64,000 nt of DNA from an uncultured Planctomycetia bacterium (GCA_964606485.1 CAZSGP010000002.1:74766-138765); one strand, 5' to 3'. Shown: positions 7,483 to 44,056, counted from the stretch's first letter. Notes: generated by a model not told the origin, from the sequence alone. Numbers and translations are program-made.

Positions 7483-8157
7483 TTAATCCCATTTTTTATC
7501 AACAATGTTCCAAACTCTGTCTGATACTTTCGCGATGCGCTCATCATGCGTCACGATCACCACTGTTTTTTTCTCTTGGGTAAAGAGATTTTTGAGAAGC
7601 GAAATAATTTCACTGCCCATCCCCGCGTCCAAATTTCCCGTGGGTTCATCACAAAATAAAATTTTTGGGTCATTCATCAGTGCGCGCGCAATCGCCACGC
7701 GTTGTTGCTCCCCTCCCGACAACTGATCGGGAAAATGCGTTGCGCGATTGCTCAAACCCATTTTTTGAAGAAGGCCTTCGGCTCGGCTACTAATTTCAGC
7801 TTTGGATTTAAGGCTCGTCCCCACCATCGCCGGAATCATCACATTCTCAAGTGCTGTGAGCTCCGGTAAAAGATGATAAAACTGAAACACAAACCCCATG
7901 CTTTGGTTGCGCAGACGCGCCTTTTGAGCTTCGTCCAGACTCTCTAGCCAGACTCCGTTAAACCGAACCCGGCCCTCCGTGGGTCGGTCCAGTCCCGACA
8001 GCAAATTAAGCAGCGTCGTCTTCCCGGTCCCGGACGGTCCCAAGATCGTAACCCCTTGCCCTTCTTCAATTTTCAAAGAAACGCCATGCAGAATTTCGAG
8101 CTTCCGTTGGCCGTCCCAGTATACCTTGCTCAAGCCCTCGGCTTCAATAGTCGTCAT
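7483..8157 (-). CDS. lolD: lipoprotein-releasing system ATP-binding protein LolD (FtsE/MacB-type ABC ATPase)
   Basis: Walker A GPSGTGKTTLLNLL, signature LSGGEQQRVAIARAL, Walker B ILFCDEPTGNLD. Adjacent to the LolC/E-type permease. Confidence 0.85.
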   Translation of the reverse strand: MTTIEAEGLSKVYWDGQRKLEILHGVSLKIEEGQGVTILGPSGTGKTTLLNLLSGLDRPTEGRVRFNGVWLESLDEAQKARLRNQSMGFVFQFYHLLPELTALENVMIPAMVGTSLKSKAEISSRAEGLLQKMGLSNRATHFPDQLSGGEQQRVAIARALMNDPKILFCDEPTGNLDAGMGSEIISLLKNLFTQEKKTVVIVTHDERIAKVSDRVWNIVDKKWD

Positions 8158-9332
8158 GACTTAAGGGCCTTAACGGGGTCCAGTCTGCCGGCTGTCCAAG
8201 CCGGATACACTGAACACGCGAGACTTAAAAGGATCGCCGTTCCTAAAACCAGACTCACATCGACCGGATTCATTCGAACAGGAAGACGGTCGAGATAATA
8301 AATTTCTCTGGGAAGCTGGATGATTGGATAATTTTTAAGCAGAAAACAAATTCCGGAGCCCGCTGCCAGCCCAAGCCCCGAACCCGCCACGCCAATACAC
8401 AGACCGTCTAGCATAAATATTTTGACGATCCCCGACGACGGCACCCCGAAGGATTTTAAGATGCCAATGTCCTTGGCCTTCCCCGTCACTAAAATTGTGA
8501 GGCTCCCTGCAATATTGAGCGAAGCGACTAAAATAATCAGCGCCAAAATTAAAAACATCACGATTTTTTCAAGCTGAAGCGCGCCGAACAAGGTTTGATT
8601 CATTTCCATCCACGTCGAGACAAAATACGGGTAGCCCAATTTTTTCTGATAACTTTTTTTAAACGCATCCGCACCTTCGGAATTTTTAAGCGCCACCGAT
8701 ACGCCGCTGACCTGAGCAGGTAGGGTGAAAAGTTCCTGCGCGCTCGCGAGCGGAATGAATAATAAATTGGCATCGTACTCGTACATGCCGAGTGAAAAAA
8801 TTCCGTCGACGGTAAACATCATTGGCTTGTCTTTATTCTGGGAAAGAATTTGAAATGTTTCGCCGGGACGAATGTGAAGGCGCTTGGCGAGCTCTGTTCC
8901 GAGAATCGCACTGCCAGGTGAAGTGTTTAAATTTCCACGCAGGAGATGTTTAAAAATTTTGGACGTTTTCTTTTCAGCAAGCGGATCAATTCCCCGGACC
9001 AGCACTCCGGTTCCCCACTCGCCGTGCTGGACCAGCGCCTGACCTTCCACAAACGGCGCCGCAGACAAAACGGAAGATTCTTTTTCTAAATTTTGAATGA
9101 CCTGGGGGTAATCCGAAAATCCGCCGTCCTTACTGACAATCGCGTGTGCGCGCGTTCCGATGATGCGGTCTTTTAAATCTTCGTCGAAGCCGCTCATCAC
9201 AGCCATGGTAACAATGAGAGACGCAGTGCCGAGTGCGATTCCGGCAAGGGATACGCCGCTCACCACTCCGACAAATGCGTGACGGCGCTTCGACCAGAGA
9301 TAACGTTTAGCGATGAACCATTCGTATTGCAT
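8154..9332 (-). CDS. lolC: LolC/LolE-family lipoprotein-release permease (MacB-like periplasmic domain plus FtsX 4-TM)
   Basis: 392 aa. N-terminal TM, large periplasmic domain, C-terminal FtsX-like TM bundle. Overlaps lolD by 4 bp. Confidence 0.85.
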   Translation of the reverse strand: MQYEWFIAKRYLWSKRRHAFVGVVSGVSLAGIALGTASLIVTMAVMSGFDEDLKDRIIGTRAHAIVSKDGGFSDYPQVIQNLEKESSVLSAAPFVEGQALVQHGEWGTGVLVRGIDPLAEKKTSKIFKHLLRGNLNTSPGSAILGTELAKRLHIRPGETFQILSQNKDKPMMFTVDGIFSLGMYEYDANLLFIPLASAQELFTLPAQVSGVSVALKNSEGADAFKKSYQKKLGYPYFVSTWMEMNQTLFGALQLEKIVMFLILALIILVASLNIAGSLTILVTGKAKDIGILKSFGVPSSGIVKIFMLDGLCIGVAGSGLGLAAGSGICFLLKNYPIIQLPREIYYLDRLPVRMNPVDVSLVLGTAILLSLACSVYPAWTAGRLDPVKALKS

Positions 9333-9337
9333 GGTTA

Positions 9338-9412
9338 CTGTAGGGGCGCGATTTATCGCGCCCTTCTCTTTGAATGATTCATCGTATTAAAAGTGGGCGC
9401 AATGAATTGCGC
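9338..9412 (-). terminator. nested GC-rich hairpin pair between the lysS 3' end and the lolC start; probable lysS terminator and possible lolC leader structure
   Basis: Two hairpins (gggcgcaattcattgcgccc and gggcgcgataaatcgcgccc on the minus strand) enclosed by an outer inverted repeat gtaggggcgc…gcgcccctac. The first is followed by acuuuuaau. Confidence 0.5.
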
Positions 9413-9414
9413 CC

Positions 9415-10881
9415 CTACGATTCTTTTTTCATCTGTGGGAATAAAATTACTTCGCGAATCGAGGGTTGACCGGTAAGCAGCATCACGAGACGATCGATGC
9501 CGATGCCGAGCCCTCCGGCCGGAGGCATGCCGTGCTCGAGGGCCATAATAAAATCTTCATCAATGGTGTCGTAGGTGCTCTCTTTGCCTTTTTCTTGGAG
9601 CTCTTCGGCGAAACGTTCACGCTGCTCGATGGGGTCGTTGAGCTCGGAGTAACCGTTCGCCAGTTCCATGCCGCCAACGTAAAGTTCAAAACGCTCGCTC
9701 AAGTAAGGATTGGATTTATTTTTTTTGGCGAGCGGACAAAGCTCGGTGAAATAATCCGTCACAAAAACCGGATGAACCACATTGTCTTTCGATTTTGAAT
9801 TTGCACCTGGCTCCAAAAGTTCAGCCACAATATTCACAATCTGCGAACGCGAAAGATCTTTGGAGGCAACATTCACGCCCTTCGCTTGAAGCTTGGTCAC
9901 CCACTCACTAATTTCCATATCGGGTGTAATTCCAAACGAATCTTTCATGAGCTGGGCAAACGACACGCGCTCCCATTTGGAAAAATCAATCACGCGGTCG
10001 GCGGTTTCAATTTTCAAAGTCCCAAAAACAGTCTGCGCGGCGTTCGTGACAATTTCTTGAGTCAAATCCATGACGTCGTTGACATCGGCGTACGCCGTGT
10101 ACACTTCGAGCATGGTGAATTCGGGATTGTGCCGCGTGGAAATTCCTTCGTTGCGAAAACTTTTATTCACTTCATACACTTTGTCGAAACCGCCGACGAG
10201 TAATTTCTTCAAATAAAGTTCGGGGGCCACACGCAAGTAAAGGCTCATATTCAGCGCTTCGTGATGCGTCTTAAAGGGTTTGCCGGCCGCTCCCCCGGGA
10301 ATCGGATGCATCATCGGCGTTTCGACTTCCAAGTACCCTTTGTCGTCGAGCACGCGGCGCACCGAGCGCACAATCAGTGAGCGGTTAATAAATATTTTTT
10401 TGACGTCGTCGTTGGAAATTAAATCCAAGTACCGATGGCGGTAACGCGTTTCCACGTCTTTTAGACCATGCCATTTTTCGGGCATAGGACGCAGACTCTT
10501 CGAAAGAAGCTTAAGCCCAACCACTCGAACGGAAATTTCTCCGGTCTTCGTTTTAAACAGTTCGCCCTCGACGCCAATGATGTCGCCAATATCGAGCGCT
10601 TCAAAAAGTTTAGTGGCATCAGGCCCGATCAAATCCGGCTTTACAAAAAGCTGGACGCGGCCGGTTTCGTCTTTTAAATCACAGAAAGTGGTTTTGCCCA
10701 TCGAGCGCACCGCAGAAAGTCGTCCCGCCGTCTGCACTTTGCGATGCTCTTCGAAATGCTCGACCATGGGGCCGATCATCTCGGTTTTAAGAAACTTTCC
10801 GCCAAAGGGGTCCACGCCTAGGGATTTGGCGGTTTCGTATTTCTTGAAACGTTCTTTTAGAATCTCATTTTGCTCGGACAT
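9415..10881 (-). CDS. lysS: lysyl-tRNA synthetase, class II
   Basis: 488 aa with an N-terminal OB anticodon-binding domain and class II catalytic motifs (…FRNEGISTRHNPEFTMLE…, GGLGIGIDRLVMLL). Confidence 0.95.
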   Translation of the reverse strand: MSEQNEILKERFKKYETAKSLGVDPFGGKFLKTEMIGPMVEHFEEHRKVQTAGRLSAVRSMGKTTFCDLKDETGRVQLFVKPDLIGPDATKLFEALDIGDIIGVEGELFKTKTGEISVRVVGLKLLSKSLRPMPEKWHGLKDVETRYRHRYLDLISNDDVKKIFINRSLIVRSVRRVLDDKGYLEVETPMMHPIPGGAAGKPFKTHHEALNMSLYLRVAPELYLKKLLVGGFDKVYEVNKSFRNEGISTRHNPEFTMLEVYTAYADVNDVMDLTQEIVTNAAQTVFGTLKIETADRVIDFSKWERVSFAQLMKDSFGITPDMEISEWVTKLQAKGVNVASKDLSRSQIVNIVAELLEPGANSKSKDNVVHPVFVTDYFTELCPLAKKNKSNPYLSERFELYVGGMELANGYSELNDPIEQRERFAEELQEKGKESTYDTIDEDFIMALEHGMPPAGGLGIGIDRLVMLLTGQPSIREVILFPQMKKES

Positions 10882-17025: not shown

Positions 17026-20000
17026 TTATTGCTTTGAGGACTCGACAATAGGGCCAGCTAACCGCGCGCCTGACCCAAATTGTGGTTTCGAAGGATCATT
17101 AAGGCCTTGTCTGCTCGCATTCCGCGCATATTCCTTAGCCTCACGTTTAATCTTAGCAGCTAATGCAGGGTTGATTTGCTCCTGAATTTTTGCTAAGCCA
17201 GCTTCTATCGCACCGTCGGTCAAATTAGGACGACCATCAAAAGCTGATGCGCTTAATCTGACTAATTCATCGTGCAAGCCTGTAAATGTCTCTACGCCTT
17301 CCTTGATTCGAGTGGCCACAAAACTAGCTATAGCACTCGCAAGAGGGGGGTAAGCTTCCACAGTGATTGGCGGACCATTGGAATCTGTAGCTTTTTCAAA
17401 TCTCGGATGCTCAAGCATTAACCGAGCATAACAATAGGCATAATACAACCTTTGAGCAACACCATCTTTGCGAAGAACATCTTTAGGCTCTTCTAGCATT
17501 GAAAAACTTTCGTCGTTGCGATCTAAAAATGATTCGGGTTCATTTTGAAGGGGAACGATTTGCTCTGAATTGAGTTCAGCTATTAAGTCCCGGAGTAAAT
17601 CCAGTGGATCCCAAGCATCCGATCCCAGAAACCGGCGCTGTATACTTGCCAGCTCGGCCGCGCGAGACCATGGAACTGGATACTCTTCCCAATTGTCCAA
17701 CACAAAACCAACTAACGACTCGAAGTCTGGATCTGCCATCAAATCTCGTCTTAACTTAGTTTCCGAAAACGGTGTATTCATTATCCGCATCAGACCCCGA
17801 CCAACTTCTTTTTCTAAAATACCCCTGGGAGCATCTTCCAGCAGCTCTGCGGGAGCACCATTCGGATAGACTTGTCTAAAATATGCCAAATTTCTTCGTA
17901 AAATGCGCACCGCTTGCTTTCTTTTATCGATCTCTATTTTGACATTTTGGGCTATTTGAAGTAACGCTTGGCAATCATTCGTTCGCAAAAGCGTCAGCGG
18001 AGAGGAAATAAAAAAACTTAAGCCAACGTTGTAATATTTTTTATCAAGAAGTAATTGCCGGTAGAAATCAATTTTTGATTCCTCTAAGGAGAATGGATCT
18101 GGGAGCAAAGAGGTGATTGTGGTTAATTCCGCGACAAGATTTGCAATTATTTCTGCATCCTTATTAACTCGATAACTTGATTTAAGGTACTCGTGGAGTG
18201 TATTTAGCATTTCAAGACTCACATACCTCTGCAAATCGAGTAACGTAGCCCTGTATAAAATTTCGCCTAATTCATCCCTTGCTTCTTCCCTTTCTTGTGG
18301 AGCTTTTGAAGTCAATCTAACCTTCAAGTCTTTATCATTATCTTTTTTCTCACCTATCATAGACGCGACGGTCTTATCTTGGAACCGACTGATCGCCTCC
18401 CTTTCTTGAGATTGAACGGTATCTAATAACTCTTGAAACCGATCTTCTAATCCACTGATCAATTGCCTACTTTTTCCACTAAGCGCTGGATAATAACCCT
18501 CTTCAACAACTAACTCCAAATTCAAAATATATTTACGAAACTCTAATCGAATCTCAAGGAGATCCGCTGACTTTAGATATAGTGAATTCCCTGTAAGAAG
18601 GGAATAATTAAGCTCTGAAACAACGTAGAGTAGATTTGCCAGTCCATCTTCAATTTTATACACATCTTGATGAGGGGTAGATTTCCATCGATCAAATATA
18701 TCCCGTAAGGTTCCTCTTTTGGTTATCGCCTCCCTTATTTCTTTTACCTCGTCAGATTCGTCCGCCATCCTCGCCCCGGCCTTTTCTGCAGCCTTAACCC
18801 CCGGCAGGGTATTAAGAGACACTAAAAATTGAATGCCCGTTCCTTGCTTTTCTGCGGCCTCTTCATAATCCTTGTCAATTTTAAAACCCCTTTCCTTTAA
18901 ATAAACGCGATAAAACGAAATCTCCGATTTTTTGCTGGCGACCCAAGTTACATTTGTAATTTTTTTATCTCTTAGATTTTTAAAAAATGCATCTAATAAA
19001 AATGACCCATGACTAGCTCTTTTAACCTTAACGGCTATCGCATCCATTTCGAGCGGCTTACCGCGCACTGCGCTAGAAGCAATAAATCCACCAAGAGAAC
19101 CATCTGGTTGAATTAACAGATAATGATCCTTATCTTCCAAATCATACCCCCATGCTTCAGCGGATTGTGGGCTATAGTCCCCTCGCCCCTTGAAAGCCGC
19201 GCGCTCTAAAATTGATAATTTTTCGGCCGCGTCATCCAGAATCACCTGAAAATCCTTTTCTTTTTGTAAGCGAGAATAAATTACTTTCCACTCCACAACT
19301 TTTCCAACTCCCTGTTTTTCTAAAATGGTGGGCAGTTGTTCGTATGGGATGGAATTTATCAACAAAAGTTTTTGGTTTTCTGTGTTTGTGCCGGAAAGCC
19401 GCGCTCCACTATCCACCCCCCTATCTTGAAACGCCTCCGAAACTTTTGCGTGATTGGCTTTGATTTGCTCCGCCAATCTCGACGCAACAAGTCGATCTGT
19501 AATTTCTGGAAGCCAATCCTCGTCCGCACTTCGATACATTTCAGCTAGAGCGCGTGCCGTCTCAAAGTTTTCACGTTTTCCGCTAGCCATTTGAATTTCG
19601 GAGGGTTTCAATCCCTCAAGAGGCTCAAGCAGCACCTTTTCGTACTTCGCCTGATTGGTTTCCTGCGTCACCTTCGGGGTTAAGACGATGTAAGAGTATC
19701 CGCTCTGCTGAAAAAGTTCTTTGAGATGTTCGGTATGATATCCACCTGTAATCAAAACGACTGCGTTGTCATTCCCGCGCAAGCGGGAATCTTGTGGTTC
19801 TGATCCCCGCCTTCGCGGGGATGACAGTTCTTTTTCAATATTTTTCAAAAATGCCAAATCTCTCTGATCCACCGAATCGTAAAAATCTTTGAGCGCTTGG
19901 CTTCCGGTTTCCAATAAATCTTTGTACGAAACCAAATCTTCAAAGTACCCGGTCTCGATGAGCTTTTTGTTCAAGAATGCCAAATAAGAGACGGTCGCAA

Positions 20001-21279
20001 AATCAGGTTCGTTGGCTTGAAACGAACGAAACTCTTCATTCGTCATTTGAATGTTGTAGGCCGTTTGAAGCAGATGAATGTACCGGTCTATGGCGTGGAT
20101 TAGCAGCGTGTCATTGCGAGAAGCCGAAGGCGACAAAGCAATCCCGTTCTCAGAGCGAGATTGCTTCGCTGTGCTCGCAATGACGGACTGATAAACTTCT
20201 TCTTCAAACTGAGCCTTCTCGTCTGCAAGCTTGCTCAGCTCAATAGAAGTAAACTCTTTCAAGTATTCTTCATAGCGAATTAAATTGGAATAAGGCTTGA
20301 GAGTTAAACCCTTTTCTCTAGCGCTATTTAAAGTATTTTGAAAGTAGCCAAATAAAGACATGCGGTCGTTGTAAATCTCATTTTTCTTGGCGAGATAATC
20401 CGCCAGATTCTGCCCGCCCTTTTTCTGAAGCTCCACCACGAGCGAGGCGAGCTCTAAGTTCGCTAGGTTAAAATCGAGAGACGCTTCTTTGGCTTGAAGG
20501 TTTTTTAGCTTTGAAAGATTGGGGTAGGTGGAAAGAGCGGGATTGCTTCGCTGCGCTCGCAATGACAAGCCCGCCTTTTCAGCTAAATCTAAAAGCCTCT
20601 TAAAACTCGTTTCAAAATTTCCATCTTTATCTTTTTCGTAATTCAGTAGTTCCTTCGGGTAAATTTTATTTTTCGCTTTTTGGAGTGCGGATTGGATGGT
20701 CTTTAAATATTCCAGCACCTCTTGCCGTGTGGCCGCGAGCTTCGAATACGCCTTGATGCTTTGCGCGTACAACGCTAGATTTTCGATTCCGATAATCTGA
20801 ATCGGGTGATTCGTGGTGAGATTTAAATACTCCTCACCTGAAATCTGCGCGTCCATCAAAAGGGTTTTCGCTTTTTGTTCCAGCGTGTTTTTGGAAATAG
20901 CATTTCGGACTTCAGTGAGCGAAACATCTCCCTCGCCGCCTTCAACGAGAATGGTGGATACGCCGTATCGCGTAATAATTTGGTCGAGCGCACCCGCAAG
21001 ATTTTGTTGTCCTGAAAAATTGGAGTGCGGATCTTGGATGTGGATCAGTAGGGGCGCAGTGCCTGCGCCCACGCCCACATGAATCTCCTTAAGCGCGCAA
21101 AAATCCATCGGCGTGACAAATTGAGCTGGATTTTGAATGAGCCCGGCAAGTTCCGCCGTCTTCGTGGGAGCCGGGGACACAGAAATTCCAGGGGCGGCAT
21201 AGGCCAATTCCTGAAAGAGGAAGGCCGCTATGAGACTTGCGGATATTAGCCTTATATTAAGTTTTTTCTTATTGGGCAT
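17026..21279 (-). CDS. giant hypothetical secreted protein (1417 aa). Signal peptide, Tiki/TraB/GumN-like N-terminal region interrupted by in-frame palindromic elements, GNAT-like segment, long helical C-terminal region
   Basis: ATG start with N-terminal signal peptide (LISASLIAAFLFQELAYAAPG). Motifs KEIHVGVGAGTAPLLIHIQDPHSN and VVLITGGYHTEHL resemble Tiki/TraB GxxH motifs. Residues ~700-790 (…GFIASSAVRGKPLEMDAIAVKVKRASHGSFLLDAFF…SFYRVYLKERGFKI) resemble GNAT motifs A and B. The family calls are inference. Confidence 0.6.
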   Translation of the reverse strand: MPNKKKLNIRLISASLIAAFLFQELAYAAPGISVSPAPTKTAELAGLIQNPAQFVTPMDFCALKEIHVGVGAGTAPLLIHIQDPHSNFSGQQNLAGALDQIITRYGVSTILVEGGEGDVSLTEVRNAISKNTLEQKAKTLLMDAQISGEEYLNLTTNHPIQIIGIENLALYAQSIKAYSKLAATRQEVLEYLKTIQSALQKAKNKIYPKELLNYEKDKDGNFETSFKRLLDLAEKAGLSLRAQRSNPALSTYPNLSKLKNLQAKEASLDFNLANLELASLVVELQKKGGQNLADYLAKKNEIYNDRMSLFGYFQNTLNSAREKGLTLKPYSNLIRYEEYLKEFTSIELSKLADEKAQFEEEVYQSVIASTAKQSRSENGIALSPSASRNDTLLIHAIDRYIHLLQTAYNIQMTNEEFRSFQANEPDFATVSYLAFLNKKLIETGYFEDLVSYKDLLETGSQALKDFYDSVDQRDLAFLKNIEKELSSPRRRGSEPQDSRLRGNDNAVVLITGGYHTEHLKELFQQSGYSYIVLTPKVTQETNQAKYEKVLLEPLEGLKPSEIQMASGKRENFETARALAEMYRSADEDWLPEITDRLVASRLAEQIKANHAKVSEAFQDRGVDSGARLSGTNTENQKLLLINSIPYEQLPTILEKQGVGKVVEWKVIYSRLQKEKDFQVILDDAAEKLSILERAAFKGRGDYSPQSAEAWGYDLEDKDHYLLIQPDGSLGGFIASSAVRGKPLEMDAIAVKVKRASHGSFLLDAFFKNLRDKKITNVTWVASKKSEISFYRVYLKERGFKIDKDYEEAAEKQGTGIQFLVSLNTLPGVKAAEKAGARMADESDEVKEIREAITKRGTLRDIFDRWKSTPHQDVYKIEDGLANLLYVVSELNYSLLTGNSLYLKSADLLEIRLEFRKYILNLELVVEEGYYPALSGKSRQLISGLEDRFQELLDTVQSQEREAISRFQDKTVASMIGEKKDNDKDLKVRLTSKAPQEREEARDELGEILYRATLLDLQRYVSLEMLNTLHEYLKSSYRVNKDAEIIANLVAELTTITSLLPDPFSLEESKIDFYRQLLLDKKYYNVGLSFFISSPLTLLRTNDCQALLQIAQNVKIEIDKRKQAVRILRRNLAYFRQVYPNGAPAELLEDAPRGILEKEVGRGLMRIMNTPFSETKLRRDLMADPDFESLVGFVLDNWEEYPVPWSRAAELASIQRRFLGSDAWDPLDLLRDLIAELNSEQIVPLQNEPESFLDRNDESFSMLEEPKDVLRKDGVAQRLYYAYCYARLMLEHPRFEKATDSNGPPITVEAYPPLASAIASFVATRIKEGVETFTGLHDELVRLSASAFDGRPNLTDGAIEAGLAKIQEQINPALAAKIKREAKEYARNASRQGLNDPSKPQFGSGARLAGPIVESSKQ
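19768..19825. repeat. 58-bp double-hairpin palindromic element inserted in-frame in the 1417-aa gene (encodes SSPRRRGSEPQDSRLRGNDN)
   Basis: gtcattcccgcgcaagcgggaatc-ttgtggttct-gatccccgccttcgcggggatgac. Two perfect 8-bp-stem hairpins in inverted orientation with gtcat…atgac termini. Confidence 0.75.
20110..20184. repeat. 75-bp nested palindromic element (gtcattgcgag…ctcgcaatgac) inserted in-frame in the 1417-aa gene (encodes …VIASTAKQSRSENGIALSPSASRNDT…)
   Basis: Terminal 11-bp inverted repeat gtcattgcgag / ctcgcaatgac. Inner inverted repeats caaagcaatc / gattgcttcg. Confidence 0.7.
20535..20566. repeat. partial (right-half) direct copy of the 20110..20184 element, 30 of 32 nt identical to 20153..20184, also in-frame
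   Basis: gagcgggattgcttcgctgcgctcgcaatgac compared with gagcgagattgcttcgctgtgctcgcaatgac. Confidence 0.7.
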
Positions 21280-43777: not shown

Positions 43778-43870
43778 TCCATGTCCCTGATTGCAGGGGC
43801 CCTAAAATGTTTAGCGCTTTTTCCGGCCACGGGAAAAGGCAGCATTCTTATTCGAAGGTAGGTCTTCTGA

Positions 43871-44035
43871 CTTCCCAGCCCTAGCTTAGCTAGCCTTCCC
43901 AATCCGGTTTACGAATCAGTGGCGACAATTGCTAAAAGGTTTTTCTCGTTCCGAGAAAACTGAGTTACAGCGGCGGGACCGTAGCCGATTTAAACGGCTT
44001 TCCCTATTAATGTCCGATTAAGGACAGCCTTCGAA
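43871..44035 (-). ncRNA. cobalamin (AdoCbl) riboswitch aptamer
   Basis: Minus-strand RNA contains UAGGGAAagccGuuuAAAUCggcuacGGUCCCGCCGCUGUAA (core), GCCACUG…GGGAAGGC, and a B12-box AGUCAGAAGACCUACC. An 8-bp P1 pairs UUCGAAGG (5') with CCUUCGAA (3'). Confidence 0.75.
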
Positions 44036-44056
44036 CAGTTTTTTATTTCAAAAAGG

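Follow-up and report, generated by a model that had tools for sequence, protein, structure and literature searches.

An in-frame insertion in a large secreted protein of Omnitrophota, probably a hairpin repeat of the CGTC-1 type

Why does a bacterial gene for a 1417-amino-acid protein carry, within its open reading frame, a short element built of two hairpins? The question is raised by a 64,000-nucleotide stretch of assembled DNA (GCA_964606485.1, CAZSGP010000002.1:74766-138765; this whole stretch is called the window), where a 58-bp palindromic element occupies positions 19768-19825. A first-pass annotation of the sequence saw in it the architecture of an in-frame MITE (a miniature transposable element with inverted repeats) of the Rickettsia palindromic element (RPE) type, and offered a regulatory RNA structure or a site of recombination or phase variation as alternatives. 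Our answer, to which we give a probability of roughly 80%, is that the element is a head-to-head heterodimer of CGTC-1-type repetitive extragenic palindromic (REP) units that was inserted in the coding region for a large secreted protein from Omnitrophota. This one kind of repeat goes by several names: dRS3 or Neisseria Transformation Sequence (NTS), Ssn-related motif (SRM), RPE-6, and CGTC-1 REP.

The sequence at 19768-19825 consists of GTCATTCCCGCGCAAGCGGGAATC, ttgtggttct, and GATCCCCGCCTTCGCGGGGATGAC, exactly as first quoted. It forms two inverted 24-nt units between gtcat and atgac ends, each with a perfect 8-bp stem and a 4-nt loop. The features at the site are as follows.

19767-19794, plus strand: unit 1, with its TGTC tag at 19767-19770 and the stem ATTCCCGC/GCGGGAAT at 19771-19778 and 19783-19790
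19792-19801: the 10-nt spacer ttgtggttct, which reads AGAACCACAA on the gene strand
19799-19826, minus strand: unit 2, with a TGTC tag, the stem ATCCCCGC/GCGGGGAT, the loop GAAG, then C and the tail AGA
19765-19824, minus strand: element-derived peptide SSPRRRGSEPQDSRLRGNDN, amino acids 486-505 of the in-frame translation, with AVVLITGGYH directly after it
19735-19761, minus strand: VVLITGGYH, amino acids 507-515, a conserved strand and motif right after the insertion
17026-21279, minus strand: the host gene, 1417 amino acids, with a signal-peptide-like N-terminus

The loop of unit 1 is GCAA, and its stem is followed by C and then the tail TTG. Relative to unit 1, the stem of unit 2 has a compensated T>C/A>G change, which makes the pair a heterodimer, and the tags at 19767 and 19826 both point outward, which makes it head-to-head. 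A pattern for the unit matched the window only at these two places, in inverted orientation, against 0.02 matches expected. As single-stranded DNA (ssDNA), the 28-nt units are predicted to fold with −9.0 kcal/mol (unit 1, z −4.8) and −9.7 kcal/mol (unit 2, z −4.3). The double hairpin and its in-frame position immediately before VVLITGGYH thus stand as originally described.

This anatomy corresponds to a published repeat family. CGTC-tagged REPs have an unpaired CGTC tag (variants TGTC and CCTC) and a short unpaired 3′ tail, mostly CCA, and the family CGTC-1 has an 8-bp stem with A-T pairs first, a 4-nt loop, and mainly head-to-head dimers (PMC3733652). CGTC-1 has been equated with dRS3 in Neisseria and with RPE-6 in R. 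conorii (Di Nocera, De Gregorio & Rocco 2013, PMC3733652). Apart from the CCA tail, the window's dimer shows all of these traits, with a TGTC tag on both units, an 8-bp stem with an AT start, a 4-nt loop, and the tags on the outside. Heterodimers also occur in the family, and intragenic CGTC dimers encode 20-30 amino acids, often in repair genes (uvrA, uvrB, and similar; PMC3733652). Besides its tails, our dimer differs from the published family in its spacer, 10 nt vs. the usual 20-100, and in its host, as Omnitrophota lie outside the five phyla listed in PMC3733652.

The comparison with the Neisseria form points the same way. The 28-nt NTS, CGTCATTCCCGCGMAVGCGGGAATCYRG, includes dRS3, and a degenerate SRM has been defined as HGTCWYN(0-2)YYVSBRHN(0-5)WNVSBRGN(0-2)RNCYNB (PMC11893778). 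SsnA, a 94-amino-acid GIY-YIG protein, binds and cuts the NTS hairpin only as ssDNA; the GTC that precedes the stem is critical for cutting, and the C that follows it is critical for binding (PMC11893778). Unit 1 agrees with the NTS at 26 of 28 positions and fits the SRM expression exactly, and both units have kept the GTC and the C. By analogy with the SsnA positions in N. meningitidis, the unit would be recognised as an ssDNA hairpin by an Ssn-type GIY-YIG nuclease. A further likeness is that, in other genomes, inverted units flank small GIY-YIG genes. By contrast, unit 2 has the compensated stem change and an off-consensus tail, and the window copy lies in frame, whereas the NTS is rarely intragenic (2% in N. 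meningitidis 8013; PMC11893778).

The original comparison with in-frame RPE-type MITEs is essentially right, with one correction to its MITE part. The result named as its refutation, an element both unique in the genome and conserved among orthologues, is not what the analysis found. The element is a palindromic repeat in frame, at a fold-compatible position, and the reading frame stays open through all 1417 amino acids; its structure fits CGTC-1 and hence RPE-6, a membership that we take from the equivalence stated in PMC3733652. The classic RPE-1-type elements, each ~100-150 bp long, code for a peptide that is conserved (Ogata et al. 2000/2002, summarised in PMC3733652 and PMC10969869), whereas the window element spans 58-60 bp and its host is not Rickettsia. 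The correction is that the element is not a classical MITE, since there are no long terminal inverted repeats and no excess of direct repeats at k = 2-5 in 125 dimers from other loci, among which we found no target-site duplication.

That the segment is an insertion, and not a conserved part of the protein, is shown by its homologues. When 21 N-terminal domains (the query and 20 homologues) are aligned with MAFFT, 15 of the 20 homologues lack any extra segment at the element's loop, while G512, G513, and H515 of the adjoining motif (GG.H) are invariant across all 21 sequences. In an AlphaFold2 model of amino acids 1-570 (mean predicted local distance difference test [pLDDT] 83, predicted template modelling score 0.76), the element segment lies between a helix at 455-486 and a strand at 506-512, and pLDDT falls below 50 at amino acids 491-501. 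The segment is thus an insertion, and the model places it in a disordered surface loop.

How such an insertion could be tolerated is suggested by the same data. The element would have landed in a flexible loop between the helix and the conserved VVLITGG strand, and its survival was probably aided by the fact that two of its three translation frames are stop-free and by a net length change that kept the frame. The frame is indeed open, as first claimed, but 58 is not a multiple of 3: with its flanking T and A, the element measures 60 nt (TGTCAT...ATGACA). Moreover, compared with orthologues that lack the insertion, the loop is longer by only ~14 amino acids, so part of the native loop has been lost. 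The protein would then carry ~20 extra residues, probably disordered. Spread of the repeat may have proceeded via an Ssn-type nuclease or via recombination or repair at ssDNA hairpins.

Could the palindrome instead be a chance property of an ordinary coding segment, or an assembly artefact? There is one copy in the window, and no exact match to the 58-mer in the JGI metagenomes. However, two unit matches stand against the 0.02 expected, hundreds of other loci carry identical units, and the segment is missing in most homologues. In addition, a separate Logan assembly of SRR12487046 encodes an identical host protein, so two assemblies agree. We regard the chance or artefact explanation as negligible.

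The repeat is also far from unique. In a scan of 185,579 GTDB genomes, one per species, the exact asymmetric dimer matched at least 120 stretches from many phyla, including, among the matches listed, Pseudomonadota, Patescibacteria, Planctomycetota, Gemmatimonadota, Elusimicrobia, Chloroflexota, Actinomycetota, and others. The single unit gave at least 120 matches in IMG/VR, and a plasmid BLAST returned two trivial single-unit matches only. Among adjacent unit pairs in the fetched loci (L numbers below), 144 are in +/− orientation with a gap of at most 60 nt. The spacers of 126 dimers elsewhere measure 9-30 nt, with a mode of ~22, which puts the window's 10 nt at the short end. In 125 of these dimers the spacers start with CAG/CAT and finish with CTG/ATG, the 3′ side of the stem is followed by C-A-G/T, and the flanking bases are a pyrimidine (Y) at −1 and a purine (R) at +1.

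About a quarter of the dimers lie inside a long open frame, mostly spurious open reading frames (ORFs) of high-GC genomes. Still, five bona fide genes contain six of the dimers in frame, namely those for UvrA, IleS (two dimers), UvrB, a MurC/Mpl-like ligase, and a beta-CASP nuclease, and the translation of HsdS contains an in-frame dimer too. This agrees with the published account of intragenic dimers that encode 20-30 amino acids, often in repair genes (PMC3733652). In the Sphingobium IleS (L232), the two in-frame CGTC-1 dimers are accompanied by a third palindrome-like segment, PGLTRGP...APDQVRGDE.

This distribution also bears on whether the element works as an mRNA structure, such as a translational pause site ahead of the conserved strand, an attenuator within the gene, or a site for RNase III. 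The predicted fold of the sense strand is strong, as the first-pass annotation had expected (−39.2 kcal/mol, z −5.8, with none of 200 shuffles equally stable), and many REPs have been argued to act as RNA elements (PMC3733652). Yet the element is missing in most homologues, and the same sequence recurs in unrelated genes and in intergenic DNA of many phyla, which fits a repeat at the DNA level and not a gene-specific regulator. An Rfam scan of the window returned only a cobalamin riboswitch (RF00174, 91.7 bits, 43840-44047, minus strand) and nothing at the element. Terminator-like matches were no commoner than in shuffled sequences and the lone match was on the antisense strand, so an intrinsic terminator was rejected. 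We consider a functional mRNA structure extremely unlikely, and found nothing in support of a regulatory RNA or of phase variation.

A REP doublet need not belong to the CGTC family, and the element could be of the REPIN or bacterial interspersed mosaic element kind, mobilised by a REP-associated tyrosine transposase (RAYT, IS200/IS605-like). Like those elements, it joins two short hairpins in inverted orientation, is able to fold into a single long one, and lacks a target-site duplication. Furthermore, a classical GTAG-tagged REP head-to-head dimer, GTAGGGGCGCG...CGCGCCCCTAC, is present in the window at 9340-9418, where it lies in the 82-nt gap between the minus-strand ORFs 8154..9332 and 9415..10881; together with the CGTC dimer, it places both REP superfamilies in this genome. 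By contrast, our element has TGTC in place of the defining GTAG tag, and no transposase has been found associated with CGTC REPs (PMC3733652). The gene found between inverted CGTC-type units is of the GIY-YIG and not the Y1 transposase kind, and no Y1 transposase was matched in the cargo of the five widely spaced unit pairs described below, two of whose ORFs, of unknown type, were not scanned against families. Mobilisation by a RAYT is therefore quite improbable, and we return to the CGTC-1 assignment.

If the element is a CGTC-1 dimer, its possible origin is suggested by loci in which the inverted units stand further apart. At L111 and L243, an inverted pair encloses an ORF of ~100 amino acids for a GIY-YIG protein, in the order plus-strand unit, CAG/CAT, ORF, minus-strand unit. 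The general layout of such a cassette is GTCAT-hairpin-CAG/CAT-[gene]-...-hairpin-ATGAC, and the GIY-YIG ORFs of the cassettes match PF01541 with E values of 1e-12 to 1e-16. L074 has this layout too, except that its plus-strand unit is the variant GTCATGCCCGCG.... In all, five inverted unit pairs are 201-700 nt apart, three with a GIY-YIG gene and two with another small ORF. At L055 (11722-12038) and L067 (359-681), inverted pairs ~270 nt apart enclose non-GIY-YIG ORFs of 79-104 amino acids, indicating that unit pairs carry other cargo too.

Because inverted unit pairs enclose a GIY-YIG gene elsewhere, our dimer resembles such a cassette without its gene, as if an internal deletion had removed the gene from the unit-GIY-YIG-unit arrangement. 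The left unit of the window element plus its spacer is identical at 35 of 36 positions to the L074 unit plus the leader of its ssn gene; the L074 contig (57% GC) is unrelated to the window. The window's spacer string starts this ssn leader as well as the dimer spacers in L379, L376, and L378; a scan based on the spacer returned mostly chance coding matches apart from these three loci. As a separate observation, the ssn cassette at L074 (5379-5854) is bracketed by a 35-nt direct repeat made of a unit and gaaattcttta, with the variant GTCATGCCCGCGTAGGCGGGCATC at its left end. This repeat might record the integration of the cassette beside a resident unit.

Several results weigh against the reading as a CGTC-1 dimer connected with Ssn-type genes. 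The unit tails, CTT and CAG, are off the CCA consensus of the family, and unit 2 fails the SRM expression, in tail positions only. Searches by regular expression, phmmer, and profile found no GIY-YIG or Ssn-like ORF in the 64-kb window or in ~99 kb of Omnitrophota loci (L001-L006), and the best 120 matches of an Ssn profile in a set of 5.8 billion proteins include no Omnitrophota label. The other repeat types of the host gene, among them one named here by its motif GTCATTGCGAG, have no adjoining GIY-YIG gene in 1 Mb of loci. For Ssn itself, the one demonstrated role is that of a transformation-limiting nuclease, and not of a transposase (PMC11893778). Finally, with this as the only CGTC-type dimer in the window, the family may be inactive in the source genome: the copy could be an old relic, or recombination may have brought it in.

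The element is not the only palindrome in its gene. Two further in-frame repeats belong to a different but related TGTC-tagged type, GTCATTGCGAG...GCAATC.

20110-20184: second in-frame palindromic dimer, of the TGTCATTGCGAG...GCAATC type, encoding amino acids 366-391
20541-20566, minus strand: single in-frame unit of the GTCATTGCGAG type, amino acids 239-250

Both are missing in most homologues, and both coincide with dips in model confidence (pLDDT down to 60 at amino acids 371-380 for the dimer, and below 50 at 242-247 for the single unit). The GTCATTGCGAG type has at least 120 matches in IMG/VR, and its units mostly pair as +/− dimers with a distance below 60 nt. The host gene also contains, at 21048-21070, a lone GTAG-tagged hairpin, GTAGGGGCGCAGTGCCTGCGCCC, at about amino acids 70-77, where the query reads VGAGTAPLL and its homologues TNGTFII.

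Homologues have been struck repeatedly as well. In P0007, an orthologue or paralogue from a related Omnitrophota metagenome-assembled genome (MAG), the element's loop is likewise occupied by a dimer of these very units (GTCATCCCCGCGAAAGCGGGGATC-18 nt-GATTCCCGCTTTCGCGGGAATGAC), with a net gain of exactly 66 nt, the length of its element. With 49-55% identity, the query is an outgroup to the insertion-bearing homologues, and this loop is unoccupied in most of the proteins that stand between it and P0007; judged from the identity matrix, the two dimers were most likely gained separately, and shared ancestry is unlikely. In P0002, P0006, P0012, and P0003, the element's loop holds different, unrelated palindromes made of tandem heptamers (GGATTGA/GGATCGA... 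or GGAAAGC... and their complements; L003 3139-3243, L005 1849-1992, L006 4736-4864, and L004 2217-2306). Within its 26 kb, the P0007 locus, L001, contains a single unit and a dimer, as well as two variant dimers. A variant dimer, GTCATCCCCGAAATCTTTAATCGGGGATC...GATTCCCGATTAAAACTCTCGGGAATGAC, is common to P0007 and P0006 at one and the same site (L001 10921-10989, L005 1305-1373); in the alignment it replaces ~20 native residues and is no simple addition. Dimers of a similar kind lie between genes at L001 24984-25077 and L006 3171-3266.

Taken across the alignment, five loops of the conserved domain hold 16 palindromic insertions of at least four repeat types in 7 of the 21 homologues. This pattern raises another explanation, in which the repeats are kept as joints for recombination or Ssn cleavage that promote or limit segment exchange between paralogues or with incoming DNA, and so diversify giant surface proteins. 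The N-terminal domain would then be a true insertion hotspot, with CGTC-, GTCATTGCGAG-, and GTAG-type and heptamer hairpins preferentially targeted to, or replacing one another at, the same few sites. Such a role is also in line with the separate hits on one loop in the query and P0007, and with the position of all GTCAT-tagged units of the window within 1.7 kb of the host gene. Conservation among Omnitrophota homologues is confined to amino acids 1-555, and the C-terminal two thirds are unrelated between them, a further point in favour of such a role. There is precedent in Neisseria, where dRS3/NTS repeats cluster around antigenic surface genes and a role of this kind has been proposed for them (PMC11893778). 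However, permissive disordered loops alone predict repeated survival at the same places, no Ssn gene was found nearby in the window or the Omnitrophota loci, and the same dimers occur in the housekeeping genes uvrA, uvrB, and ileS, where diversification is implausible. We therefore judge exchange joints unlikely and, likewise, think it doubtful that the domain is a targeted hotspot, although the recurrent use of the same loops by several families leaves a small chance of such a role. A CGTC-1 dimer tolerated in a disordered loop is the reading that we retain.

Which organism and protein are involved can be stated in part. The closest named relatives of the window's aspartate-semialdehyde dehydrogenase are Candidatus Omnitrophica/Omnitrophota (75-79% identity) and several host-protein homologues are labelled Omnitrophota; by these sequence relationships, the source is an Omnitrophota bacterium. 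The host protein matched no Pfam family, with a weak DUF5694 hint in one homologue only, and a Foldseek search of the model against the PDB gave nothing significant, only weak erythromycin-esterase-like matches. Two paralogues of the host family, P0007 and P0012, occur in one MAG, GCA_945877765.1 (L001 and L006). A tRNA scan of the window found none.

The repeat itself is known and very widespread in bacteria, and the modestly new points are the phylum, the structural evidence that the loop tolerates it, the likeness of its spacer to the leader of an ssn gene, and the recurrence of several repeat families in one set of loops. The case provides a clean example of how a selfish hairpin repeat that crosses phyla is absorbed into a protein, here in a phylum that has been little studied, where the predicted structure places the tolerated sites in disordered loops. 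It also joins three literatures on a single object, namely those on CGTC REPs, on dRS3/NTS/SRM with their Ssn nucleases, and on RPE-6. For annotation, it is a warning that strings such as VIPAKAGI, SSPRRRGS, and DSRLRGND within proteins are repeat-derived. The spacer match to the ssn leader, together with the unit-ssn-unit cassettes, supports the idea that the dimers are gene-less derivatives of an insertion sequence-like GIY-YIG element, which bears on how CGTC REPs spread. If the hotspot explanation were true, the repeats would be a diversification device for these proteins and not merely tolerated passengers.

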